From the IMG/VR virus record IMGVR_UViG_2713896788_000033: a stretch of 8,823 nt of DNA, one strand, 5' to 3'. The translations under genes and the position numbers were made by a program. The stretch is from a virus (taxonomy: Duplodnaviria; Heunggongvirae; Uroviricota; Caudoviricetes). The notes under the pieces are model-generated. The model had not been told where the DNA came from and searched no databases. It was given only the letters and a program-made list of their open reading frames with translations. This document shows positions 1 through 8,823 of the stretch, in pieces. How positions within the stretch are numbered: the first letter of the stretch is position 1; the number at the start of each line of letters is the position of its first letter.

Positions 1-1
1 G

Positions 2-214
2 CGGAAAAACGGTGCTGAAATTTATAACCGTACCGCGCTGGATAATACGCTGATTTACAGTGGTGTTATTGATATGCCTGCCGGTCACGGTCACATGACA
101 CTGGAGTTTTCGGTGTCAGCATGGCTGGTAAATAACTGGTATCCCACAGCAAGTATCAGCGATTTGCTGGTTGTGGTGATGAAGAAAGCCACTGCAGGCA
201 TCACGATTAGCTGA
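2..214 (+). CDS. J: 3' end of tail-tip / host-specificity protein J (partial, start lies upstream of the window)
   Basis: Frame 2 is open from the window edge to TGA at 212-214 and encodes ...[64 protein letters not shown]. From memory this resembles the C-terminus of lambda J, and it sits directly upstream of lom as in lambda. Family assignment is recollection, not a search. Confidence 0.7.
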
Positions 215-230
215 ATTTTATAACCCAGAT

Positions 231-258
231 ACGGGCGCCAGAAATGGCGCCTTTTTTA
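231..258 (+). terminator. Rho-independent terminator-like hairpin between J and lom
   Basis: GGCGCC (232-237), 6-nt loop, GGCGCC (244-249), followed by TTTTTTATT (250-258). Confidence 0.5.
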
Positions 259-281
259 TTGCAGAAAAGCGAGAGGTAATT

Positions 282-881
282 ATGCGTAAATTATGTGCTG
301 TTATTTTGTCCGCAGTAGTCTGGCAGGTCGCCGCTGCTACGCCAGCGAGTGCAGCAGAACATCAGTCCACGCTGAGCGCGGGGTATCTCCATGCCTCGAC
401 GAACGTTCCCGGTAGTGATGATCTGAACGGGATTAACGTGAAATACCGTTATGAGTTTATGGACGCGCTGGGGCTGATTACGTCCTTCAGTTATGCCAAT
501 GCTGAGGATGAGCAAAAAACGCGCTACAGCGATACCCGCTGGCATGAAGATTCCGTGCGTAACCGCTGGTTCAGCGTGATGGCGGGGCCGTCTGTACGCG
601 TGAATGAATGGTTCAGCGCGTATGCGATGGCGGGTGTGGCTTACAGCCGTGTGTCGACTTTCTACGGGGATTATCTCCGCGTAACTGACAACAAGGGGAA
701 AACGCACGATGTGCTGACCGGAAGTGATGACGGTCGCCACAGCAACACGTCTCTGGCGTGGGGGGCTGGCGTGCAGTTTAACCCGACCGAATCCGTGACC
801 ATTGACCTTGCTTATGAAGGTTCCGGTAGTGGCGACTGGCGATCGGATGCATTTATTGTTGGTATCGGATACCGTTTCTGA
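282..881 (+). CDS. lom: Lom-family (Ail/PagC/OmpX-like) outer membrane beta-barrel protein, a lambdoid prophage moron
   Basis: 199-aa ORF with SD GAGAGG at 271-276. N-terminal signal peptide MRKLCAVILSAVVWQVAAATPASA|AE. Alternating aromatic/hydrophobic beta-strand pattern and C-terminal ...IVGIGYRF typical of small outer-membrane barrels. Position immediately after J matches lambda lom. Confidence 0.9.
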   Translation: MRKLCAVILSAVVWQVAAATPASAAEHQSTLSAGYLHASTNVPGSDDLNGINVKYRYEFMDALGLITSFSYANAEDEQKTRYSDTRWHEDSVRNRWFSVMAGPSVRVNEWFSAYAMAGVAYSRVSTFYGDYLRVTDNKGKTHDVLTGSDDGRHSNTSLAWGAGVQFNPTESVTIDLAYEGSGSGDWRSDAFIVGIGYRF

Positions 882-986
882 CAACAGACGCCGATTTATC
901 TTCTGTAAATATTGTTATGATACGCAGGTTCATCCACCTTATGGGGTGAACTGCGTTTGAGGAAACGTAAAGTTACACTGTCCTGA

Positions 987-1018
987 AGCCCGTGGCGTCA
1001 CTGCTGCGGGCTTTTTTT
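987..1018 (+). terminator. Terminator-like hairpin downstream of lom
   Basis: AGCCCG (987-992), 14-nt loop, CGGGCT (1007-1012), then a T-run (1012-1018). The long loop makes this weaker than the others. Confidence 0.35.
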
Positions 1019-1032
1019 ATTGGTGGAAAAGT

Positions 1033-1299
1033 ATGACAGTAAAAATTTCTGGCGTGCTTAAAGATGGCACAGGAAAACCAGTACAGAACTGCACCATTGT
1101 GCTGAAGGCCAGACGAACCAGCAGCACGGTGGTGGTGAACACGGTGGCCTCTGAAAATCCGGATGAAGCCGGACGTTACAGCATGGATGTTGAGTACGGT
1201 CAGTACAGCGTCATTCTGTTGGTGGAGGGATTTCCTCCGTCACATGCCGGGACCATCACCGTGTATGAAGATTCTCAACCCGGTACGCTGAATGATTTT
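1033..1299 (+). pseudogene. 5' fragment of a side tail fibre gene (stf N-terminal domain, 89 codons), truncated by the assembly gap
   Basis: [92 protein letters not shown] runs into the N-run. It is roughly 90-93% identical at the nucleotide level (by eye) to 1420-1686 of the full stf, so it is a diverged paralogous copy, not an exact duplicate. Confidence 0.7.
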
Positions 1300-1349
1300 N
1301 NNNNNNNNNNNNNNNNNNNNNNNNNNNNNNNNNNNNNNNNNNNNNNNNN
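1300..1349. other. Assembly gap (50 N)
   Basis: Run of n characters; true length and content unknown. Confidence 0.99.
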
Positions 1350-1381
1350 TTCTGATTAGCCAGGTAACACAGTGTTATGAC

Positions 1382-1409
1382 AGCCCGCCGGTTCAGGCGG
1401 GCTTTTTTG
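1382..1409 (+). terminator. Terminator-like hairpin immediately upstream of stf
   Basis: AGCCCGCC (1382-1389), loop GGTTCAG, GGCGGGCT (1397-1404), then TTTTTT (1404-1409). It ends about 10 bp before the stf SD and start. Confidence 0.5.
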
Positions 1410-1419
1410 TGGGGTGAAT

Positions 1420-4335
1420 ATGGCAGTAAAGATTTCAGGTGTACTGAAAGACGGCACAGGAAAACCGGTAGAGAACTGCACCATTCAACTGAAAGCCAGA
1501 CGTAACAGCGCCACGGTGGTGGTGAACACGGTGGCCTCTGAAAATCCGGATGAAGCCGGTCGTTACAGCATGGACGTTGAGTACGGTCAGTACAGCGTNA
1601 TTCTGTTGGTGGAAGGNTTCCCGCCGTCACATGCCGGGACCATCACCGTGTATGAAGATTCTCAACCCGGTACGCTGAATGATTTTCTTGGTGCCATGAC
1701 TGAGGATGATGTCCGTCCGGAGGCACTGCGCCGTTTTGAGCTGATGGTGGAAGAGGTGGCGCGTAACGCGTCCGCGGTGGCACAGAACACGGCAGCCGCG
1801 AAGAAGTCAGCCAGCGATGCCAGCACATCAGCCCGTGAGGCGGCAACCCATGCGACTGATGCTGCGGACTCAGCACGCGCAGCCAGCACGTCAGCCGGAC
1901 AGGCCGCGTCGTCGGCTCAGTCAGCGTCTTCCAGCGCAGGAACGGCATCAACAAAGGCTACTGAAGCATCAAAAAGTGCTGCCGCTGCAGAGTCCTCAAA
2001 AAGCGCGGCGGCTACCAGTGCCGGTGCGGCGAAAACGTCAGAAACGAATGCGGCAGTGTCACAACAATCAGCCGCCACTTCTGCATCCACCGCGACCACG
2101 AAAGCGTCAGAAGCTGCCTCCTCAGCCAGGGATGCGTCGGCTTCAAAAGAGGCGGCAAAATCATCAGAAACGAGCGCAGCCTCGAGCGCCAGTAGTGCAG
2201 CCTCCTCGGCAACGGCGGCAGGCAATTCCGCGAAGGCGGCCAAAACGTCTGAGACAAACGCTAAGTCCTCTGAAACGGCAGCAGAACAGAGTGCCTCCGC
2301 AGCAGCAGGCTCAAAAACAGCGGCTGCATTATCTGCCAGTGCCGCGTCAACAAGTGCCGGGCAGGCCTCAGCCAGTGCCACCGCCGCCGGAAAATCGGCA
2401 GAAAGTGCCGCATCGTCTGCTTCAACAGCCACAACGAAGGCTGGCGAAGCCACTGAACAGGCCAGCGCAGCAGCGAGTTCTGCTTCCGCAGCGAAGACAT
2501 CCGAAACGAACGCGAAAGCGTCGGAAACCAGCGCAGAATCCTCAAAAACGGCTGCCGCATCGTCAGCCAGTTCGGCGGCGTCATCGGCATCATCTGCGTC
2601 TGCTTCAAAAGATGAGGCGACCAGACAAGCGTCAGCAGCGAAGAGCAGCGCCACGACGGCATCCACGAAGGCGACAGAGGCAGCTGGTAGTGCGACGGCA
2701 GCAGCTCAGAGCAAAAGTACGGCGGAATCTGCAGCAACGCGCGCTGAGACAGCGGCAAAACGGGCAGAGGATATTGCATCCGCCGTGGCGCTTGAGGATG
2801 CGAGCACGACGAAAAAGGGGATAGTACAGCTCAGCAGTGCGACTAACAGCACTTCCGAGTCACTGGCGGCAACGCCAAAAGCCGTTAAGGCCGCGTATGA
2901 GCTGGCTAACGGGAAATACACCGCACAGGATGCAACGACAGCACAGAAAGGGATAGTTCAGCTTAGCAACGCGACCAACAGCACATCTGAAATGCTGGCG
3001 GCAACGCCAAAGTCGGTAAAGGCAGCCTATGACCTTGCTAACGGGAAATATACTGCTCAGGACGCTACGACAGCACAAAAAGGAATTGTCCAGCTCAGTA
3101 GTGCAACCAACAGCGCATCTGAAACGCTTGCCGCGACACCGAAAGCAGTGAAAGCAGCTAATGATAATGCGAATGGTCGGGTACCTTCTGCCCGTAAGGT
3201 GAATGGTAAGGCGCTTTCATCGGATATAACACTGACGCCGAAAGATATTGGTACGCTTAACTCAACAACAATGTCATTCAGCGGTGGTGCTGGTTGGTTC
3301 AAATTAGCAACGGTAACCATGCCACAGGCGAGTTCTGTTGTTTCAATTACGTTGATTGGTGGCGCGGGATTTAACGTGGGGTCACCTCAACAGGCAGGTA
3401 TATCTGAACTTGTTTTGCGTGCAGGTAATGGTAATCCGAAGGGGATTACTGGTGCTTTATGGCAGCGCACATCGACAGGGTTTACAAATTTTGCCTGGGT
3501 CAATACATCTGGTGATACTTACGATATTTACGTTGCAATCGGAAATTATGCGACTGGTGTAAATATTCAATGGGATTATACCAGTAATGCCAGCGTGACG
3601 ATTCATACGTCACCAGCATATTCTGCTAATAAGCCGGAAGGGTTAACGGACGGTACAGTTTATTCACTCTATACGCCATCAGAGCAGTTTTATCCGCCTG
3701 GCGCACCAATCCCGTGGCCATCAGATACCGTTCCGTCTGGCTATGCCCTGATGCAGGGGCAGACTTTTGACAAATCTGCATACCCGAAACTTGCAGCCGC
3801 TTATCCGTCAGGCGTGATCCCTGATATGCGTGGCTGGACGATTAAGGGCAAACCTGCCAGTGGTCGGGCCGTATTGTCTCAGGAACAGGACGGCATTAAA
3901 TCGCACACCCACAGCGCCAGCGCATCCAGTACGGATTTGGGGACGAAAACCACATCGTCGTTTGATTACGGCACTAAATCCACGAATAACACCGGGGCGC
4001 ACACGCACAGTGTGAGCGGTACAGCCGCAAGTGCCGGAAACCATACTCATAGTGTCACAGGCGCATCAGCAGTCAGCCAGTGGTCACAAAATGGGTCAGT
4101 ACATAAGGTAGTGTCTGCGGCCAGTGTGAATACAAGTGCTGCAGGAGCGCACACTCATAGTGTCAGCGGCACAGCTGCATCTGCAGGTGCTCACGCACAT
4201 ACTGTCGGTATTGGTGCTCATACGCACTCTGTTGCGATTGGCTCACATGGACACACCATCACCGTTAACGCTGCGGGTAACGCGGAAAACACTGTCAAAA
4301 ACATCGCATTTAACTACATTGTGAGGCTTGCATAA
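1420..4335 (+). CDS. stf: Side tail fibre protein (lambda Stf-like; distal part related to T4 gp37-type fibres)
   Basis: The track ORF starts at GTG 1414, but ATG 1420 preceded by GGGGTG is the likelier start. Conserved N-terminal domain [16 protein letters not shown]... Long Ala/Ser/Thr-rich low-complexity shaft. Three tandem 44-aa repeats [44 protein letters not shown]-terminal His-rich HxH repeats and terminal ...[22 protein letters not shown]. Contains ambiguous bases at 1599 and 1617. Stop TAA 4333-4335 overlaps the tfa start. Confidence 0.9.
2815..3210 (+). repeat. Three in-frame tandem repeats of 132 bp (44 aa) inside stf (phage tail fibre repeat)
   Basis: Repeat units begin at 2815, 2947 and 3079, a period of exactly 132 bp. 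Peptide units are [88 protein letters not shown] and [28 protein letters not shown]..., the third diverging after about 3160. Confidence 0.9.
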
Positions 4336-4916
4336 TGGCATTCAGAATGAGTGAACAACCACGGACCATAAAAATTTATAATCTGCTGACCGGAACTAAT
4401 GAATTTATTGGTGAAGGTGACGCATATATTCCGCCTCATACAGGTCTGCCAGCAAACAGTACCTATATTGCACCGCCAGATATTCCGGCTGGCTTCGTGG
4501 CTGTTTTCAACAGTGATGAGTCATCGTGGCATCTCGTTGAAGATCATCGGGGTAAAACGGTTTATGACGTGGCTTCCGGCGACGCGTTATTTATTTCTGA
4601 ACTCGGCTCATTACCGGAAAATGTTACCTGGTTATCGCCGGAAGGGGAGTTTCAGAAGTGGAACGGCACAGCCTGGGTGAAAGATGCAGAAGCAGAAAAA
4701 CTGTTCCGGATCCGGGAGGCGGAAGAAACAAAAAACAGCCTGATGCAGGTAGCCAGTGAGCATATTGCGCCACTTCAGGATGCTGTAGATCTGGAAATCG
4801 CAACGGAGGAAGAAGCCTCATTGCTGGAAGCCTGGAAAAAGTATCGGGTGTTGCTGAACCGTGTTGATACATCAACTGCACCTGATATTGAGTGGCCTGT
4901 AATACCTGAAGTTTAA
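4335..4916 (+). CDS. tfa: Tail fibre assembly protein (Tfa; chaperone for the Stf tip, T4 gp38-related C-terminal domain)
   Basis: 193-aa ORF whose ATG (4335-4337) overlaps the stf stop as TAATG, the classic stf-tfa coupling. Its C-terminal segment ...[37 protein letters not shown] is the conserved Tfa C-terminal domain and recurs in the fragment at 8577-8696. Confidence 0.85.
4754..4874 (+). repeat. Left copy of an approximately 120-bp direct repeat (tfa 3' end) bracketing the cargo
   Basis: Hand alignment of 4754-4874 against 8577-8696 gives about 13 mismatches in 120 bp with no indels (about 89% identity). Confidence 0.8.
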
Positions 4917-4921
4917 AATAA

Positions 4922-4947
4922 AAGCCCGCTTAAAATATCGCGGGCTT
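4922..4947. terminator. Hairpin between convergent tfa (+) and katN-like (-) genes; possible bidirectional terminator
   Basis: GCCCGC (4924-4929), 10-nt loop, GCGGGC (4940-4945). It is flanked by an A-run on the 5' side (4914-4922), which is a U-run for the minus-strand transcript, and only a short TT on the + side. Confidence 0.45.
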
Positions 4948-5035
4948 CGAAATATAAATGTATTTTCAGAGGCTAGAGCTTAGGATATCTCAGCGGCAAT
5001 TAACTTATGAGGGATAGCTAAATACCAGAAGATAA

Positions 5036-5926
5036 TTAGTTTTTACTATTTATCTTTGTTTGTGGTTCTCCTTCAGCAAGCTCAGCGCCAGTGACAGGAT
5101 TGATGTCTTCATGGGATTTCAACCTTGTTGCCATAGCTTTTATCATAGCTTCTTGCTTGGTCGAAAGATTTATCGAGGCCTTCCCATCCCCACCGTCAAC
5201 CGCTGAAACTGGATCGGAAACATAGTCAAAGTTTTCATCACTGTTCCAACTACCTCTGACGTCTTCACCTTCTGACATGTTGTAATATACGTTTTTGTAT
5301 TTCTCAAGTGGTGGTAATTTTCCTGGTGGAAAGGTGTTACGAATTGAATGTAATGCTTTTTCAAATGAAAGCATGTGTGCTGCTTCCCGGGTCATTAAAA
5401 ATGCCAGAGTGTCTTTTACTCCAGGATCATCAGTAACATTAATGAGACGTTCGTAAATGATCTTTGCCCGAGCTTCAGCTGCAATATTTGAACGAAGATC
5501 GGCCGTGACTTCGCCAATAGTATCAACATAAGCTGCAGTCCAGGGTACTCCAGCTGAATTAGTTAATGCTGGGCCTCCTCCGTAGAGGAGAGAAGTTATA
5601 TGGCTATCATTGCCATTTTGAGTTAAGGAACGGTAAAGCTCAGCTTCATTCTCAGTTCCTTCAGCAAGTGCTCCTTTTGCACCTTTGTTGAGCATACCAA
5701 CAAGAGAACCAATAATTTCGAGATGACTTAGTTCTTCTGTTGCTATGTCCATCAGCATATCCCTTCGGCCTGCATCTTCATCACTTAAGCCTTGAGTGAA
5801 GTATCGGCATGCTGCTGCAAGCTCACCCTGTGGCCCACCGAATTGTTCTAAGAGTAGATTAGCCAAGCCTGGGTTTGGCTCACTTACACGTACTGTATAT
5901 TGAAGTTTTTTCACGTGTCTAAACAT
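5036..5926 (-). CDS. katN: Manganese (non-haem) catalase, KatN-like
   Basis: 296-aa ORF with a strong SD (GAGGAGG, reverse complement of 5930-5936) 4 nt before the ATG. N-terminus MFRHVKKLQYTVRVSEPNPGLANLLLEQFGGPQGELAAACRYF and two ExxH motifs (TEELSHLE, TREAAHML) match the dimanganese-site signature of the Mn-catalase family. It is the last gene of a yciG-yciF-yciE-katN arrangement like the one known in Salmonella. Confidence 0.8.
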   Translation of the reverse strand: MFRHVKKLQYTVRVSEPNPGLANLLLEQFGGPQGELAAACRYFTQGLSDEDAGRRDMLMDIATEELSHLEIIGSLVGMLNKGAKGALAEGTENEAELYRSLTQNGNDSHITSLLYGGGPALTNSAGVPWTAAYVDTIGEVTADLRSNIAAEARAKIIYERLINVTDDPGVKDTLAFLMTREAAHMLSFEKALHSIRNTFPPGKLPPLEKYKNVYYNMSEGEDVRGSWNSDENFDYVSDPVSAVDGGDGKASINLSTKQEAMIKAMATRLKSHEDINPVTGAELAEGEPQTKINSKN

Positions 5927-5944
5927 AATGCCTCCTCAAAAGAA

Positions 5945-6451
5945 TTATTTTTTGGCTTCAACTCCATCAATTTCAGATCTGACCATGAATTGCTCAGTGG
6001 TGTCAGGAATATGGTTAAGAAGCCATTCAGCCATTTGTTTTTCTTCATTAAGAATTGCTTCAATAATGGGTACTGAAGCTGTATCACCCGCATTTTTGGC
6101 TGCTGCGAGAAGAGATGTGTAACACGCAATTTCAAATTGTTCGAACACATAGCCACTGATCGAACCTTTGACAATTTCATCAGATGGAAAAATTCCACCA
6201 ATGGATTGTCCAAACGCGGCCATTTTACTCATAGAGTCTTTAATGACAGAGCGCGAAATATTATTACGATCAAGTATGCTTTCAAGCTGTGAAAGCTGGT
6301 TCTTTGTTTCGCTAATGTGCTGCTCAATTCTGGAACGTAACTCAGGATAGTTTTCTATCCGGCTGGCCATAGACTCAAGCATTTTTTCAGCTTGTTTTTC
6401 CATCGCATGTGCATCACGAAGCCAGTCATGGTAATGTTCAATTCTATTCAT
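5945..6451 (-). CDS. yciE: DUF892 ferritin-like stress protein, YciE-like
   Basis: 168-aa ORF with SD AGGA upstream (reverse complement of about 6456-6462). N-terminus MNRIEHYHDWLRDAHAMEKQAEKML carries the DUF892 motif (D-x-[YH]-x-[AM]-E-K-Q). Gene order matches yciGFE. Confidence 0.8.
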   Translation of the reverse strand: MNRIEHYHDWLRDAHAMEKQAEKMLESMASRIENYPELRSRIEQHISETKNQLSQLESILDRNNISRSVIKDSMSKMAAFGQSIGGIFPSDEIVKGSISGYVFEQFEIACYTSLLAAAKNAGDTASVPIIEAILNEEKQMAEWLLNHIPDTTEQFMVRSEIDGVEAKK

Positions 6452-6487
6452 AATCTGTTTATCCTAAAAGAAATTGAAGTCTATAGT

Positions 6488-6988
6488 TCAGGAGTTATCC
6501 TGAGCTTTTTTATTAACGTTATTAAATGCCAGGTCTGTTAATTTGACATCAGTAGCTTTTTCCTCTTCCAGTGTTTCTTTCAGGAGTTTAGCCGCTTTTT
6601 TATATCCTAATTGCTCAGCGAGTGTTACCAAAGTGCCATAACTGGCAATTTCATAGTGCTCTACTTTTTGTGCTGCAGCAATCAATGCAGCATCACGTAC
6701 TTCATTTTTATCAGTGCTTTCAATTACCTCATTCGCCTCTTCGATAAGTCCTTCCATTGCGGCACACTTAATTCTTTTCAATTTAAGACCATCTTCAGAA
6801 TCAACAACCTGATCGATGCGTTCAATTTGACCATGTGTCTCATCAAGATGTGACTGAAAAGCAGCGGTTAATTTATCACTATATGCAGAGCGACTAAGTT
6901 TAGACAGTGCCTTTGTTAGTTGTTTCTCAGCGCTGTATGTATCCGATAATAAGTGGATGAAGATATCTTCAACAGATTTAATTTGCAT
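6488..6988 (-). CDS. yciF: DUF892 ferritin-like stress protein, YciF-like
   Basis: The track ORF starts at GTG 6994 (MIMQIK...), but ATG 6988 preceded by GGAG with a 5-nt spacer is the likelier start (MQIKSVEDIFIHLLSDTYSAEKQLTKAL...). It carries the DUF892 motif LSDTYSAEKQ and is a paralogue of the adjacent YciE-like gene. Confidence 0.8.
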   Translation of the reverse strand: MQIKSVEDIFIHLLSDTYSAEKQLTKALSKLSRSAYSDKLTAAFQSHLDETHGQIERIDQVVDSEDGLKLKRIKCAAMEGLIEEANEVIESTDKNEVRDAALIAAAQKVEHYEIASYGTLVTLAEQLGYKKAAKLLKETLEEEKATDVKLTDLAFNNVNKKAQDNS

Positions 6989-7006
6989 AATCACTCCAGA
7001 GTTTTC

Positions 7007-7030
7007 ACTGCGAGCCCGTAGGCTCGCAGT
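7007..7030 (-). promoter_or_regulatory. Perfect 10-bp stem / 4-nt loop hairpin in the yciG-yciF intercistronic region
   Basis: ACTGCGAGCC (7007-7016), loop CGTA, GGCTCGCAGT (7021-7030). No U-run follows on the transcribed (minus) strand, so it looks like an intra-operon processing or stability element or a partial attenuator, not a full terminator. Confidence 0.5.
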
Positions 7031-7066
7031 TAGCTTCAGTTATTCACGAATGTAGGGGGTGATAAA

Positions 7067-7249
7067 TTAAGAGTCAGATTTACGGCCGCCACCATGGCTA
7101 TTCTGACCACCTTTTTTCCCTGCTTCTGATGCTCTTTGTGGATCGTTTTTAAAATTACCGCCACTATGTTGGCCGCCTTTACGACCAGCGTCAGAAGCTT
7201 TTTGTCGATCTTCAGCGAAATTACCTGCACCGCCACGATGTTCGGTCAT
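7067..7249 (-). CDS. yciG: KGG-repeat general stress protein, YciG-like
   Basis: 60-aa Gly/Lys-rich ORF MTEHRGGAGNFAEDRQKASDAGRKGGQHSGGNFKNDPQRASEAGKKGGQNSHGGGRKSDS with two KGG-type repeats (GRKGGQHSGGNF, GKKGGQNSHGG). SD GAGGAGAA (reverse complement of 7255-7262) precedes the ATG. First gene of the operon. Confidence 0.75.
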   Translation of the reverse strand: MTEHRGGAGNFAEDRQKASDAGRKGGQHSGGNFKNDPQRASEAGKKGGQNSHGGGRKSDS

Positions 7250-7272
7250 ATCATTTCTCCTCTGATTTTCAA

Positions 7273-7299
7273 ATTGTAAATAACATGTGCCTTGTCAGC
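7273..7299 (-). promoter_or_regulatory. Candidate promoter for the yciG-like operon (minus strand)
   Basis: On the minus strand: -35-like CTGACA (reverse complement of 7294-7299), about 15 bp spacer, -10-like TACAAT (reverse complement of 7273-7278), about 25 nt upstream of the yciG ATG. The spacer is short, so a stationary-phase sigma-factor-type promoter with a degenerate -35 is plausible. Prediction by eye only. Confidence 0.3.
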
Positions 7300-7746
7300 A
7301 CCCAATTAACTCTAGTAACAAATAAGAAAGTGTCAAATAAGAGATTGGTATGCGCATCTTAATGTGAGAAATAGCAATTGTAAAAATGTGTACTCAGTGA
7401 GTATAATCTGTTGATATCTTGGTGATTAACGGAAAGTTTAGGTTGTAACTCAAAAGATTAATAAATCTAAATTTACATTTCTATATCTTTTGATGTGTAT
7501 GGCGTTGTTTTTCTCAATCAGAACATTCTAAAAAATAATTTAATTACACGGCGGTAGTTGTTAATGTTTTTACGACTCTTCCTAATGAAGTCTGTTTCTT
7601 GGATAAATAGAGAAATTTTATCTTAAGGACTAATTACAAAAACATCTATATAGCCACAGGAATCATTATTGTACTTAACTACAATATTTGAGAGTAAAAA
7701 TTAAACCGCAGACACGGCGTATGCAAGAACGTGCTGCGGTTGGATG

Positions 7747-8415
7747 CTATTTTTTCCCTGAAGCGGAAAACATTACTACAGTACCTTGAACCTTGGTTTT
7801 AACATTCTCGAAATGCTCTGAGAGTATATGTGTTAAGCCTTCTTCGGAATCTTTTGTGTTTGAAAAGATGCCTTTCTGATTGTAAATGCGCATCAGTTTT
7901 TGACCGAAGCTATTGTGCACAACTCCATCGCCAAGAATTGTGGCTCCGTATAGAGTTCCATCGTCAGTTAAGGCCTGCGCCGCATTGCGTATTACACAGC
8001 TTTTTGTAGATATATTTCCAGGCAGGCAGTGAAGAAGGTAAAACATGGAAATGGAATCAAATTGACCATGTAACGCCGCGGGATAAGGTTCAAAAACATC
8101 ATGGCTAATTTTATGTTTAATTTTTGATTCCCCAGCCCTTGTAGATGCCGCGTTCAGGCTAGCTTCGTTCAAATCCATTAAAGATATCAGACTACTCTCA
8201 GGTACGTGAGTAAGGTAAAACCCAGTTCCAACACCAATATCCAGATGGTTGTTACCTAAATGTTCCAGAAAGTGTGGAAGAAGGTGTTCCTTTGTAGGAC
8301 ATCCCCATGCAAGACGATTTGATACTCCCAAAACCCACCAGTCATAAAGCTTTAGGGTAAGTGGTGTGTAAATTTTAGCCCCATCATCTGTGTTTTTTTT
8401 CATTAATTTCACCAT
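7747..8415 (-). CDS. Class I SAM-dependent methyltransferase (orphan; target unknown)
   Basis: 222-aa ORF; the likelier start is the internal ATG (reverse complement of 8401-8403), which has a GGTGA SD, giving MKKNTDDGAK... Rossmann motif I HLDIGVGTGFYL (hh-D-h-G-x-G-x-G), an acidic residue after beta-2 (SLMDLNE) and a DDGTLY motif typical of small-molecule/RNA class I methyltransferases. From memory, a methyltransferase gene (ybcY) lies between two tfa genes in E. coli K-12 prophage DLP12; this arrangement is similar, but the homology is unverified. Confidence 0.6.
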   Translation of the reverse strand: MVKLMKKNTDDGAKIYTPLTLKLYDWWVLGVSNRLAWGCPTKEHLLPHFLEHLGNNHLDIGVGTGFYLTHVPESSLISLMDLNEASLNAASTRAGESKIKHKISHDVFEPYPAALHGQFDSISMFYLLHCLPGNISTKSCVIRNAAQALTDDGTLYGATILGDGVVHNSFGQKLMRIYNQKGIFSNTKDSEEGLTHILSEHFENVKTKVQGTVVMFSASGKK

Positions 8416-8471
8416 GTTATAGTTTTATTTGTGAATTAAATCAATTATGGCGATGAATTACAAGGGGTTAA

Positions 8472-8720
8472 ATGCTGCCGCAGCATAGCGATATTGAAAT
8501 AGCCTGGTATGCTGCGATACAGCAGGAGCCGAATGGCTGGAAGACCGTCACCACACAGTTCTACATCCAGGAATTCAGTGAGTATATTGCGCCACTGCAG
8601 GATGCTGTAGATCTGGAAATCGCAACGGAGGAAGAAAGATCGTTGCTGGAGGCATGGAATAAATATCGGGTATTGTTGAATCGTGTTGATACATCAGTAG
8701 CTCGTAAGCGTACAGCCTGA
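8472..8720 (+). pseudogene. 3' remnant of a second tail fibre assembly (tfa) gene
   Basis: 82-aa ORF whose C-terminal half ...[38 protein letters not shown] matches the C-terminal domain of the tfa at 4335-4916 (nucleotide similarity 8577-8696 versus 4754-4874). The N-terminal 35 residues show no similarity to the full Tfa and there is no convincing SD, so this is probably a recombination remnant whose ATG is fortuitous. Confidence 0.6.
8577..8696 (+). repeat. Right copy of the approximately 120-bp direct repeat (tfa 3' end)
   Basis: See the left copy: same orientation, same reading frame, similarity ends at ...GTTGATACATCA. Confidence 0.8.
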
Positions 8721-8823
8721 ACCGTCTGGTCAGAATCTGACGAATTAGACAAAGTGGTGCCCACCAAATAAGTAGTGGGAACCAAAGTATCAGATATGCA
8801 GAAAAATGTGACTCCCGGCAGGC

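Follow-up and report, generated by a model that had tools for sequence, protein, structure and literature searches.

The stretch of DNA analysed here, called the window below, is the 8,823 nucleotides of the IMG/VR virus record IMGVR_UViG_2713896788_000033, and it holds the distal end of a lambdoid tail-fibre region in which the tail fibre assembly gene tfa is followed by a catalase operon (katN-yciEFG), a methyltransferase gene (ybcY) and a second, partial tfa sequence (tfaX), with direct repeats of tfa enclosing about 3.7 kb. Positions 1350-8823 are 99.97% identical to prophage Sp8 (CP-933X) of Escherichia coli O157:H7 in both Sakai and EDL933, the sole mismatches being two single N bases (1599 and 1617), and many O157:H7 genomes match 4300-8823 at 100%. 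The Sakai annotation describes the region as "prophage Sp8; lambda-like phage" and gives the order Lom, stf (ECs_1650), tfa (ECs_1651), catalase (ECs_1652), three hypothetical proteins, ECs_1656, ECs_1657 (labelled as a second "tail fibre assembly protein"), ISEc8, hydrolase and ompT. The window is very probably the right arm of this prophage, in which cargo would have accreted stepwise behind the tail-fibre genes. The features are collected in Table 1, and comparative counts refer throughout to 5426 complete E. coli genomes.

Table 1. Features of the 8,823-nucleotide window, in order of position.
Feature	Positions	Strand	Evidence
lom and stf 5′ end, other lambdoid prophage copy	1..1349	.	lom gene 282-881; 50 N at 1300-1349
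stf, side tail fibre gene of Sp8/CP-933X (ECs_1650)	1414..4335	+	list of open reading frames; Sakai annotation
tfa, intact, 193 codons (ECs_1651)	4335..4916	+	Caudo_TAP (PF02413) 1-131/131, E = 8e-45
Direct repeat, left copy: conserved C-terminal tfa block, codons 137-180	4743..4874	+	repeat search, blastn
katN-yciEFG moron cassette, 2.8 kb	4899..7704 (right end approximate)	.	junction alignments against PhiR29_1, 2G7b, DLP12, lambda, PhiR68_2
Stem-loop AAGCCCGC-N10-GCGGGCTT between convergent tfa and katN	4922..4947	.	fold -13.9 kcal/mol, z = -3.5
katN, manganese catalase (Z1921/ECs_1652)	5036..5926	-	Pfam Mn_catalase, E = 8e-87
yciE-like ferritin-like gene (Z1922/ECs_1653)	5945..6451	-	Pfam DUF892, E = 1e-50
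yciF-like ferritin-like gene (Z1923/ECs_1654; RefSeq start 6988)	6488..6994	-	Pfam DUF892, E = 3e-54
yciG-like gene for a general stress protein with KGG repeats (Z1924/ECs_1655); opens the operon	7067..7249	-	Pfam KGG, E = 1e-16
AT-rich upstream region of the operon (GC ~0.32), right end of the cassette	7250..7704	-	composition; promoter-like sites
Conserved hairpin CCGCAG...CTGCGG, right boundary of the cargo slot	7705..7738	.	directly after tfa in lambda, DLP12, PhiR29_1, 2G7b
ybcY-type class I S-adenosylmethionine-dependent methyltransferase (ECs_1656), intact	7747..8415	-	Pfam Methyltransf_12/23/25
tfaX-type remnant open reading frame, 82 codons (ECs_1657)	8472..8720	+	Caudo_TAP positions 75-121 of 131 only
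Direct repeat, right copy, within tfaX	8565..8696	+	repeat search, blastn
ISEc8 (IS66 family) left end, inserted in tfaX	8704..8823	+	Sakai repeat_region annotation; junction sequences

The two copies of the direct repeat are each 132 nucleotides (nt) long and lie in the same orientation and in frame, 3822 nt apart from start to start, with 115 of 132 positions identical (87%). Within them blastn recovers a gapless core of 121 nt (4754-4874 against 8576-8696) at 89.3% identity and E = 4e-38, which is far beyond chance for a window of 8.8 kb, with an unbroken match of at most 39 bp (4776-4814) within an overall divergence of 11-13%. A preliminary description of the window, made from the letters alone, had proposed that repeats of about 120 bp from the tfa 3′ end bracket the cargo, and aligning the copies bears out the similarity. 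It had also equated the repeat with the last 40 or so codons of tfa; the block does recur in the same orientation, but it corresponds to codons 137-180, and the left copy stops short of the gene end, leaving the final 13 of 193 codons unrepeated here. ISEc8 follows, with its left end 8 nt after the end of the right copy, which lies, as had been described, inside a tfa remnant. No second intact tfa gene is present, and RefSeq lists tfaX as a tail fibre assembly pseudogene without its N-terminus.

The cargo enclosed by the repeats consists of two layers that occur independently of one another. With a coverage threshold of 80%, the ybcY-tfaX pair is found in 3420 of the 5426 genomes; the catalase operon is found in 382, and 345 of these show the Sp8-like arrangement. 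Functional, plaque-forming lambdoid phages from ECOR and K-12 hosts (PhiR29_1, 2G7b and others) read stf-tfa-ybcY-tfaX-hydrolase-ompT with no catalase operon; the right end of DLP12 in K-12 MG1655 reads tfaD, ybcY (a pseudogene there, intact in Sp8), tfaX, appY, ompT, and the K-12 derivative TOP10 matches ybcY-tfaX at 97.2% identity. The converse is found at locus L004, where tfa and the catalase operon are followed by the prophage end at the lambda attachment site (attR core GCTTTTTTATACTAA, then ybhB and bioA), and at locus L005, where the operon lies directly after tfa in a prophage adjoining ydfJ (the Qin site); ybcY and tfaX are absent from both. In the O27:H7 strain B4103-1 and the O20:H12 strain Res13-Lact-PEB17-18 the operon belongs to a prophage at the DLP12 site that also has ybcY and a tfaX uninterrupted by ISEc8. 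With kat alone, ybcY-tfaX alone, both, and neither (lambda), all four combinations of presence and absence therefore exist. On these comparisons ybcY-tfaX appears to be an old module and the kat cassette a younger layer, making two independent acquisitions between the repeats. Everything between the repeats had been called non-phage-like; this is true of katN-yciEFG with its low content of guanine plus cytosine (GC), but not of the methyltransferase, which is a regular constituent of lambdoid phage genomes.

Each layer has its own edges, and those of the kat cassette define a slot between tfa and a conserved hairpin. The start of tfa overlaps the stf stop, and the full-length Caudo_TAP match of its intact open reading frame (ORF) places it in the Tfa family. 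Codons 1-188 are common to lambda, DLP12 and PhiR29_1; identity to PhiR29_1 is 97.8% as far as position 4898 and then breaks off abruptly, and codons 189-193 (VIPEV) and the stop come from the cassette. In lambda, DLP12, PhiR29_1 and 2G7b a single layout follows the conserved …AACCGTGTTGATACATCA: …GATATTGAGTGGCCT, six variable codons with a stop, a spacer of ~15 nt and the hairpin CCGCAG…CTGCGG, with …GAGTGGCCT common to all four just before the variable codons. The tail-plus-spacer segments of the lambda and DLP12 types are recognisably homologous. In every kat-bearing prophage the cassette starts directly after GAGTGGCCT (4898|4899, tfa codon 188), supplies the new tfa end and its own hairpin at 4922-4947, and finishes just before the hairpin at 7705-7738. 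Collinearity of the window with PhiR29_1 extends to 4898 and resumes at ~7700, the cassette replacing ~30-35 nt of phage sequence in between; the replaced ~35 nt are, in phages with an empty slot, the last 6 tfa codons, the stop and the spacer.

Hairpins of the 7705-7738 type fold at -18 to -25 kcal/mol, and lie at ~673-706 in lambda (locus L089) and at 4634-4666 in locus L002. The lambda and DLP12-type versions carry compensatory stem differences (CCGCAGAAACGTT/AACGTTCTGCGG versus CCGCAGCACGT/ACGTGCTGCGG), which suggests selection on the structure, as for a bidirectional terminator. In the Sp8 hairpin the loop-proximal left part is GTATGC, as in the kat-only locus L004, while the right arm continues into ybcY, and this hybrid appearance would fit a crossover within the hairpin. 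A third kind of occupant is found in phage PhiR68_2 (locus L090, 3112-4852), which has a pinQ/R-type serine recombinase and ynaE in the same slot (window-equivalent positions 4897 and 7703). The suggestion of a cargo hotspot at the distal end of the tail-fibre module is thus well founded, the slot being empty or filled by katN-yciEFG or pin-ynaE in related phages. For phages Turner and Kati, a DNA invertase is listed under the same match as PhiR68_2.

These boundaries and distributions bear directly on the possibility that the whole 3.7 kb is one cargo, gained in a single recombination between tfa paralogues, with the repeats as its ends and able to delete it precisely. The repeats are real and direct, tfaX does derive from a different tfa allele, and the 39-bp run exceeds the minimal pairing segments (MEPS) that De Paepe et al. 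(2014, PMC3945230) quote, 31-34 bp with RecA and 23-27 bp with Red-beta, so that the repeats could support deletion in principle. However, thousands of genomes as well as functional phages have ybcY-tfaX but not kat, and L004 and L005 have kat but neither ybcY nor tfaX; a single cargo would not leave this pattern, and the cassette boundaries at 4898|4899 and ~7704|7705 lie away from the repeats. Comparing "empty" with "filled" prophages, as the preliminary description had suggested, gives, in PhiR29_1 and 2G7b, stf-tfa without kat, but with ybcY-tfaX in place; what stands of its paralogue recombination is the origin of tfaX from another allele, and not the gain of 3.7 kb by one crossover.

Nor did precise loss of the cargo, which the repeats had been thought to mediate, leave a fixed product among the complete genomes. 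Hybrid queries, built to attain 80% coverage solely on an uninterrupted tfa/tfaX junction, found such a junction in none of the 5426 genomes, either in an insertion sequence (IS)-free version (601 nt) or in an ISEc8 version (488 nt), and a longer hybrid query of 960 nt returned only two-piece matches spanning ~2.0 kb with the methyltransferase kept. We therefore consider a single gain of the whole interval very unlikely. Crossovers do occur within the conserved tfa block, as the IMG/VR locus L097 (IMGVR_UViG_2563366967_000002) illustrates: its kat-ybcY-tfaX segment is 99.4% identical to that of the window and joined to a different tail-fibre module, with the homology breaking at ~7127 (window ~4800), inside the conserved tfa 3′ block. 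The occurrence of kat after tfa at other sites in prophages that lack ybcY and tfaX argues that the cassette spreads by way of flanking homology and not through the tfa/tfaX repeats, which would thus appear to be a scar and not the route by which the kat operon arrived.

If the kat-bearing arrangement were instead ancestral, the empty tfa-hairpin-ybcY phages would be deletions of the cassette, and a deletion ending at the hairpin is conceivable, the hairpin lying to the right of the cassette in both Sp8 and L004. Yet the 35 nt of the slot are homologous between the lambda and the DLP12/PhiR29_1 types and missing from kat-bearing prophages, and loss of the cassette would not bring them back. 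The empty state is also about 9 times commoner, the base composition of the cassette is foreign, and the unrelated pin-ynaE pair uses the same boundaries. Together these make a kat-bearing ancestor very unlikely, and favour insertion of the cassette into an existing slot.

Considering the cassette itself, the order yciG, yciF, yciE, katN on one strand is that of a yciGFE-katN stress operon. The kat genes have a GC fraction of 0.37-0.43 and the cassette as a whole (4900-7700) one of 0.32-0.43, compared to 0.5-0.61 in stf, a base composition unlike that of the neighbouring phage genes. The stem-loop at 4922-4947 is predicted to be a bidirectional terminator brought in by the cassette. The best promoter-like match upstream of yciG lies at 7336-7309 on the minus strand (10/12), and the 15 promoter-like matches in total barely exceed the 10.9 expected from shuffled sequence. 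A transposon or site-specific integrative cassette was considered and rejected: a repeat search of the window found no terminal inverted repeats at the cassette ends (4899/7704), there is no target duplication at the junctions GAGTGGCCT|GTAATACC and AATTAAA|CCGCAG, Pfam detects no recombinase gene within the cassette, and the ISEc8 duplication lies outside it. We likewise rejected the idea that GAGTAA, at the cassette's right end, is a vestigial stop of tfa, the motif being unconserved in L004 and L005. In a search for the donor, the best KatN outside E. coli in a scan of genome contigs was 87% identical at the amino acid (aa) level (Kosakonia, with other Enterobacteriaceae at best likewise), and matches in the plasmid collection reached at most 73% nucleotide identity. 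In the O157:H7 strain F8492 (NZ_CP038282.1) a copy of IS1203/IS629 lies inside the kat operon, and the best match in Z0117EC0098 extends over only half of it, the record having a further matching place; the kat cargo is thus occasionally disrupted.

The nature of tfaX can be judged from its extent and from its variants. It is not a full-length Caudo_TAP protein, positions 1-74 and 122-131 being missing, and its tfa-derived part covers only 8565-8703, after which the ORF runs on into ISEc8. Codons 1-31 have no full-length Tfa counterpart in a tblastn search of the phage collection with the 101-aa PhiR29_1 version; a 42-aa query from the N-terminus, run against 5.8 billion proteins, matched nothing longer than 71 aa, and a search for the full-length parent among phages and the same 5.8 billion proteins returned short remnants only. 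The frame has been disrupted independently three times, by a TGG-to-TGA nonsense codon in K-12 (MG1655, locus L008, 5876-6140) and PhiR68_2, beyond which the tfa frame runs to its natural end (…RVDTSVAPDIEWLIQP*), by a frameshift that splits it into two annotated ORFs in phage 2G7b (locus L003, 4900-5198), and by an IS in O157. The last is ISEc8, flanked by an 8-bp target duplication, AGTAGCTC, at 8696-8703 and again after the element (locus L001, 13405-15854); its insertion at 8704 means that the O157 tfaX is truncated as well.

A similar remnant with the same left breakpoint is found in E. coli GB089 (locus L092, 2015-5215) behind a different tail-fibre module, which consists of a shorter stf and a DUF4376 protein (a putative fibre chaperone) followed by ~300 nt of non-coding sequence and the remnant, with no ybcY. 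The GB089 remnant is mosaic, its 5′ end resembling tfa and its 3′ end tfaX, and hydrolase and ompT come next. From this context and its own remnant status, tfaX can therefore be taken to mark where the hydrolase/appY-ompT arm starts on its left side, a leftover from the replacement of tail-fibre modules.

Orientation, proximity and an identity of 87-89% would also be expected if tfaX were a local tandem duplicate of the neighbouring tfa 3′ end that has since decayed. Against this, 9 of the 13 core differences over 40 aligned codons of tfa and tfaX fall at third positions, with a proportion of synonymous differences (pS) of 0.31 and a ratio of non-synonymous to synonymous proportions (pN/pS) of 0.15; though 13 differences are a small sample, this bias implies that the two diverged as functional genes, and not as a gene and a decaying duplicate. 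Sampled full-length tfa alleles, the neighbour included, are only 87-90% identical to tfaX (in a spread sample that does not rank all alleles exhaustively), the K-12-type tfaX has a 3′ end of its own (…VAPDIEWLIQP*), distinct from that of the neighbouring tfa, and the GB089 remnant stands behind an unrelated module. Local duplication is accordingly highly improbable, and tfaX is the dead 3′ fragment of a different tfa allele. That it is instead a functional small gene under selection, such as a truncated chaperone or regulator sharing a domain with tfa, is scarcely credible given the three disruptions, the missing Caudo_TAP positions and the RefSeq pseudogene call, in spite of a good Shine-Dalgarno sequence (AAGGGG) 5 nt before the ATG at 8472, an ORF that is open in several phages and the "protein TfaX" coding sequence annotated in K-12. 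The divergent ybcY/tfaX intergenic region is very compact, at just 56 nt, and a promoter-like site for ybcY (8471-8444, minus strand) overlaps the Shine-Dalgarno sequence and ATG of the tfaX ORF (window 8444-8474).

We propose a history in three layers. In the oldest, a tail-fibre module (stf-tfa, terminator, ybcY) would have been joined onto a resident right arm, the resident tfa 3′ end surviving as tfaX before hydrolase/appY-ompT and giving rise to the direct repeat of the tfa C-terminal block. Later, the katN-yciEFG operon, with its own AT-rich, putative promoter region and predicted terminator, would have entered the slot between tfa codon 188 and the terminator hairpin. The cassette would then move between lambdoid prophages by homologous recombination in conserved flanks, on the left the tfa body or its 3′ block, and on the right the terminator hairpin and whatever follows it. 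Finally, ISEc8 inserted into tfaX in the lineage of O157. In experiments lambda swaps stf-tfa with Rac and Qin, mainly via Red, a divergence of 12% cuts recombination only ~100-fold in the lytic cycle, and an insert between tfa and ea47 is tolerated (PMC3945230); by extension from that work, relaxed phage recombinases of the Red/RecT type are the most likely agents of the transfer.

Several points weigh against this account. The order of events rests on parsimony, with no dated phylogeny. The right-hand homology between L004 and Sp8 is the 33-nt hairpin only, a length that falls short of comfortable for RecA and just suffices for enzymes of the Red type; illegitimate events could therefore account for some transfers, and in L005 the hairpin is degenerate. 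No cassette donor was identified in the searches above, the 87% KatN of Kosakonia being the closest outside E. coli. The searches returned no full-length parent allele from which the illegitimate join behind tfaX could be reconstructed. The phage collection contains no virion genome with the cassette, so that its movement by phage today is putative; the IMG/VR kat loci appear, to judge by contig names in the style of IMG genomes, to be prophage predictions from isolate genomes, which add arrangements and do not prove packaging. With these points in mind, we put at a little under even chances a wider reading in which the conserved tfa block and the terminator hairpin form a two-boundary cargo slot of lambda-like phages, whose contents (none, katN-yciEFG or pin-ynaE) would be swapped by relaxed Red/RecT-type recombination, KatN being a phage-mobilisable fitness cassette at no fewer than three (at least 3) prophage integration sites and the tfa/tfaX repeat a rare, inducible route for loss of both cargoes.

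The locus can be compared with several known systems. The closest is DLP12, which shares with Sp8 the order tfa, hairpin, minus-strand ybcY and plus-strand tfaX, and in both the tfa 3′ block is directly repeated. The two differ in that DLP12 has a 5′-truncated tfaD, a ybcY pseudogene, a tfaX with a nonsense codon, appY in place of hydrolase and an empty slot, whereas Sp8 has intact tfa and ybcY genes, katN-yciEFG in the slot and a tfaX interrupted by ISEc8. Another parallel is with phage morons, a concept reportedly due to Hendrix and Juhala, which are said to be extra transcription units between genes that are adjacent in related phages. Like these, the kat cassette is inserted between elements that are adjacent elsewhere, tfa and the hairpin lying only ~15 nt apart in lambda, DLP12, PhiR29_1 and 2G7b, and differs from its surroundings in GC. 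It also has its own predicted terminator hairpin and an upstream region reported as regulated (PMC5363993). Unlike a typical moron it is a four-gene operon opposite in direction to the late genes, and it replaces the last tfa codons instead of being cleanly intergenic. A third comparison is with the invertible segments of Mu (G), P1 (C) and e14 (P), which like Sp8 have duplicated tfa-family sequence at the distal end of the tail fibre genes, and the pin-type serine recombinase in the slot of PhiR68_2 is a second likeness. In those systems, however, the duplicates are inverted and lie beside an invertase, while the Sp8 copies are direct and one is a dead fragment, and neither the ORF list nor Pfam gives an invertase ORF in the window.

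The operon itself has been studied before. Wan et al. (2017) named Z1921 KatN, demonstrated its type VI secretion system (T6SS)-dependent secretion, and found that RpoS and OxyR activate it and that H-NS represses it; they noted the similarity of z1921-z1924 to yciGFE-katN and placed the operon on the cryptic prophage CP-933X as a horizontal acquisition (PMC5363993). That work covers Z1921-Z1924 of EDL933, which is the same operon as here, and leaves the insertion junctions and the slot undescribed. The RpoS-dependent yciGFE-katN operon of Salmonella resembles that of enterohaemorrhagic E. coli (EHEC) in gene order and domains, though records labelled Salmonella are only ~72-73% identical in nucleotides to the Sp8 operon, and the Salmonella operon is a chromosomal core locus where that of Sp8 is prophage-borne. 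De Paepe et al. (2014) provide an experimental mechanism of module exchange in exactly the region of the Sp8 cargo, using marked alleles with Rac and Qin, the kat cassette and tfaX being outside their scope (PMC3945230).

The role of KatN as a T6SS-secreted catalase that aids EHEC against host reactive oxygen species, its location on CP-933X and the tfa-ybcY-tfaX arrangement annotated in K-12 were thus already known, and a search of the literature on tfaX, on ybcY and on morons at the ends of lambdoid tail-fibre regions yielded nothing that concerned the Sp8 junction in particular. What is added here is the precise anatomy of a layered interval, with a kat cassette of defined junctions in a slot shared with lambda and found in several backbones and integration sites. 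This should be useful for annotating prophage cargo and for tracing the spread of KatN among E. coli lineages. The general understanding of lambdoid mosaicism is unchanged, and the locus is an ordinary, tidy example in a well-studied pathogen genome.

The left end of the window has a different origin. Positions 1-1299 are just 88-89% identical to the lom/stf region of Sp8 in Sakai and EDL933, and in finished genomes 1..1349 is not contiguous with Sp8; given this identity and the 50 Ns, the first 1.3 kb would come from another lambdoid prophage copy across a scaffold gap. The stf 5′ end recurs after the N run as a direct repeat (1016-1299 and 1403-1686, 89%), and this looks like a scaffold join of two lambdoid prophage copies and no real duplication. 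Within stf, a long low-complexity stretch rich in Ala, Ser and Thr (1800-3190) contains many short degenerate repeats, and three tandem units of 132 nt at 2795-3190, 62-77% identical, fit repeated motifs of the protein.

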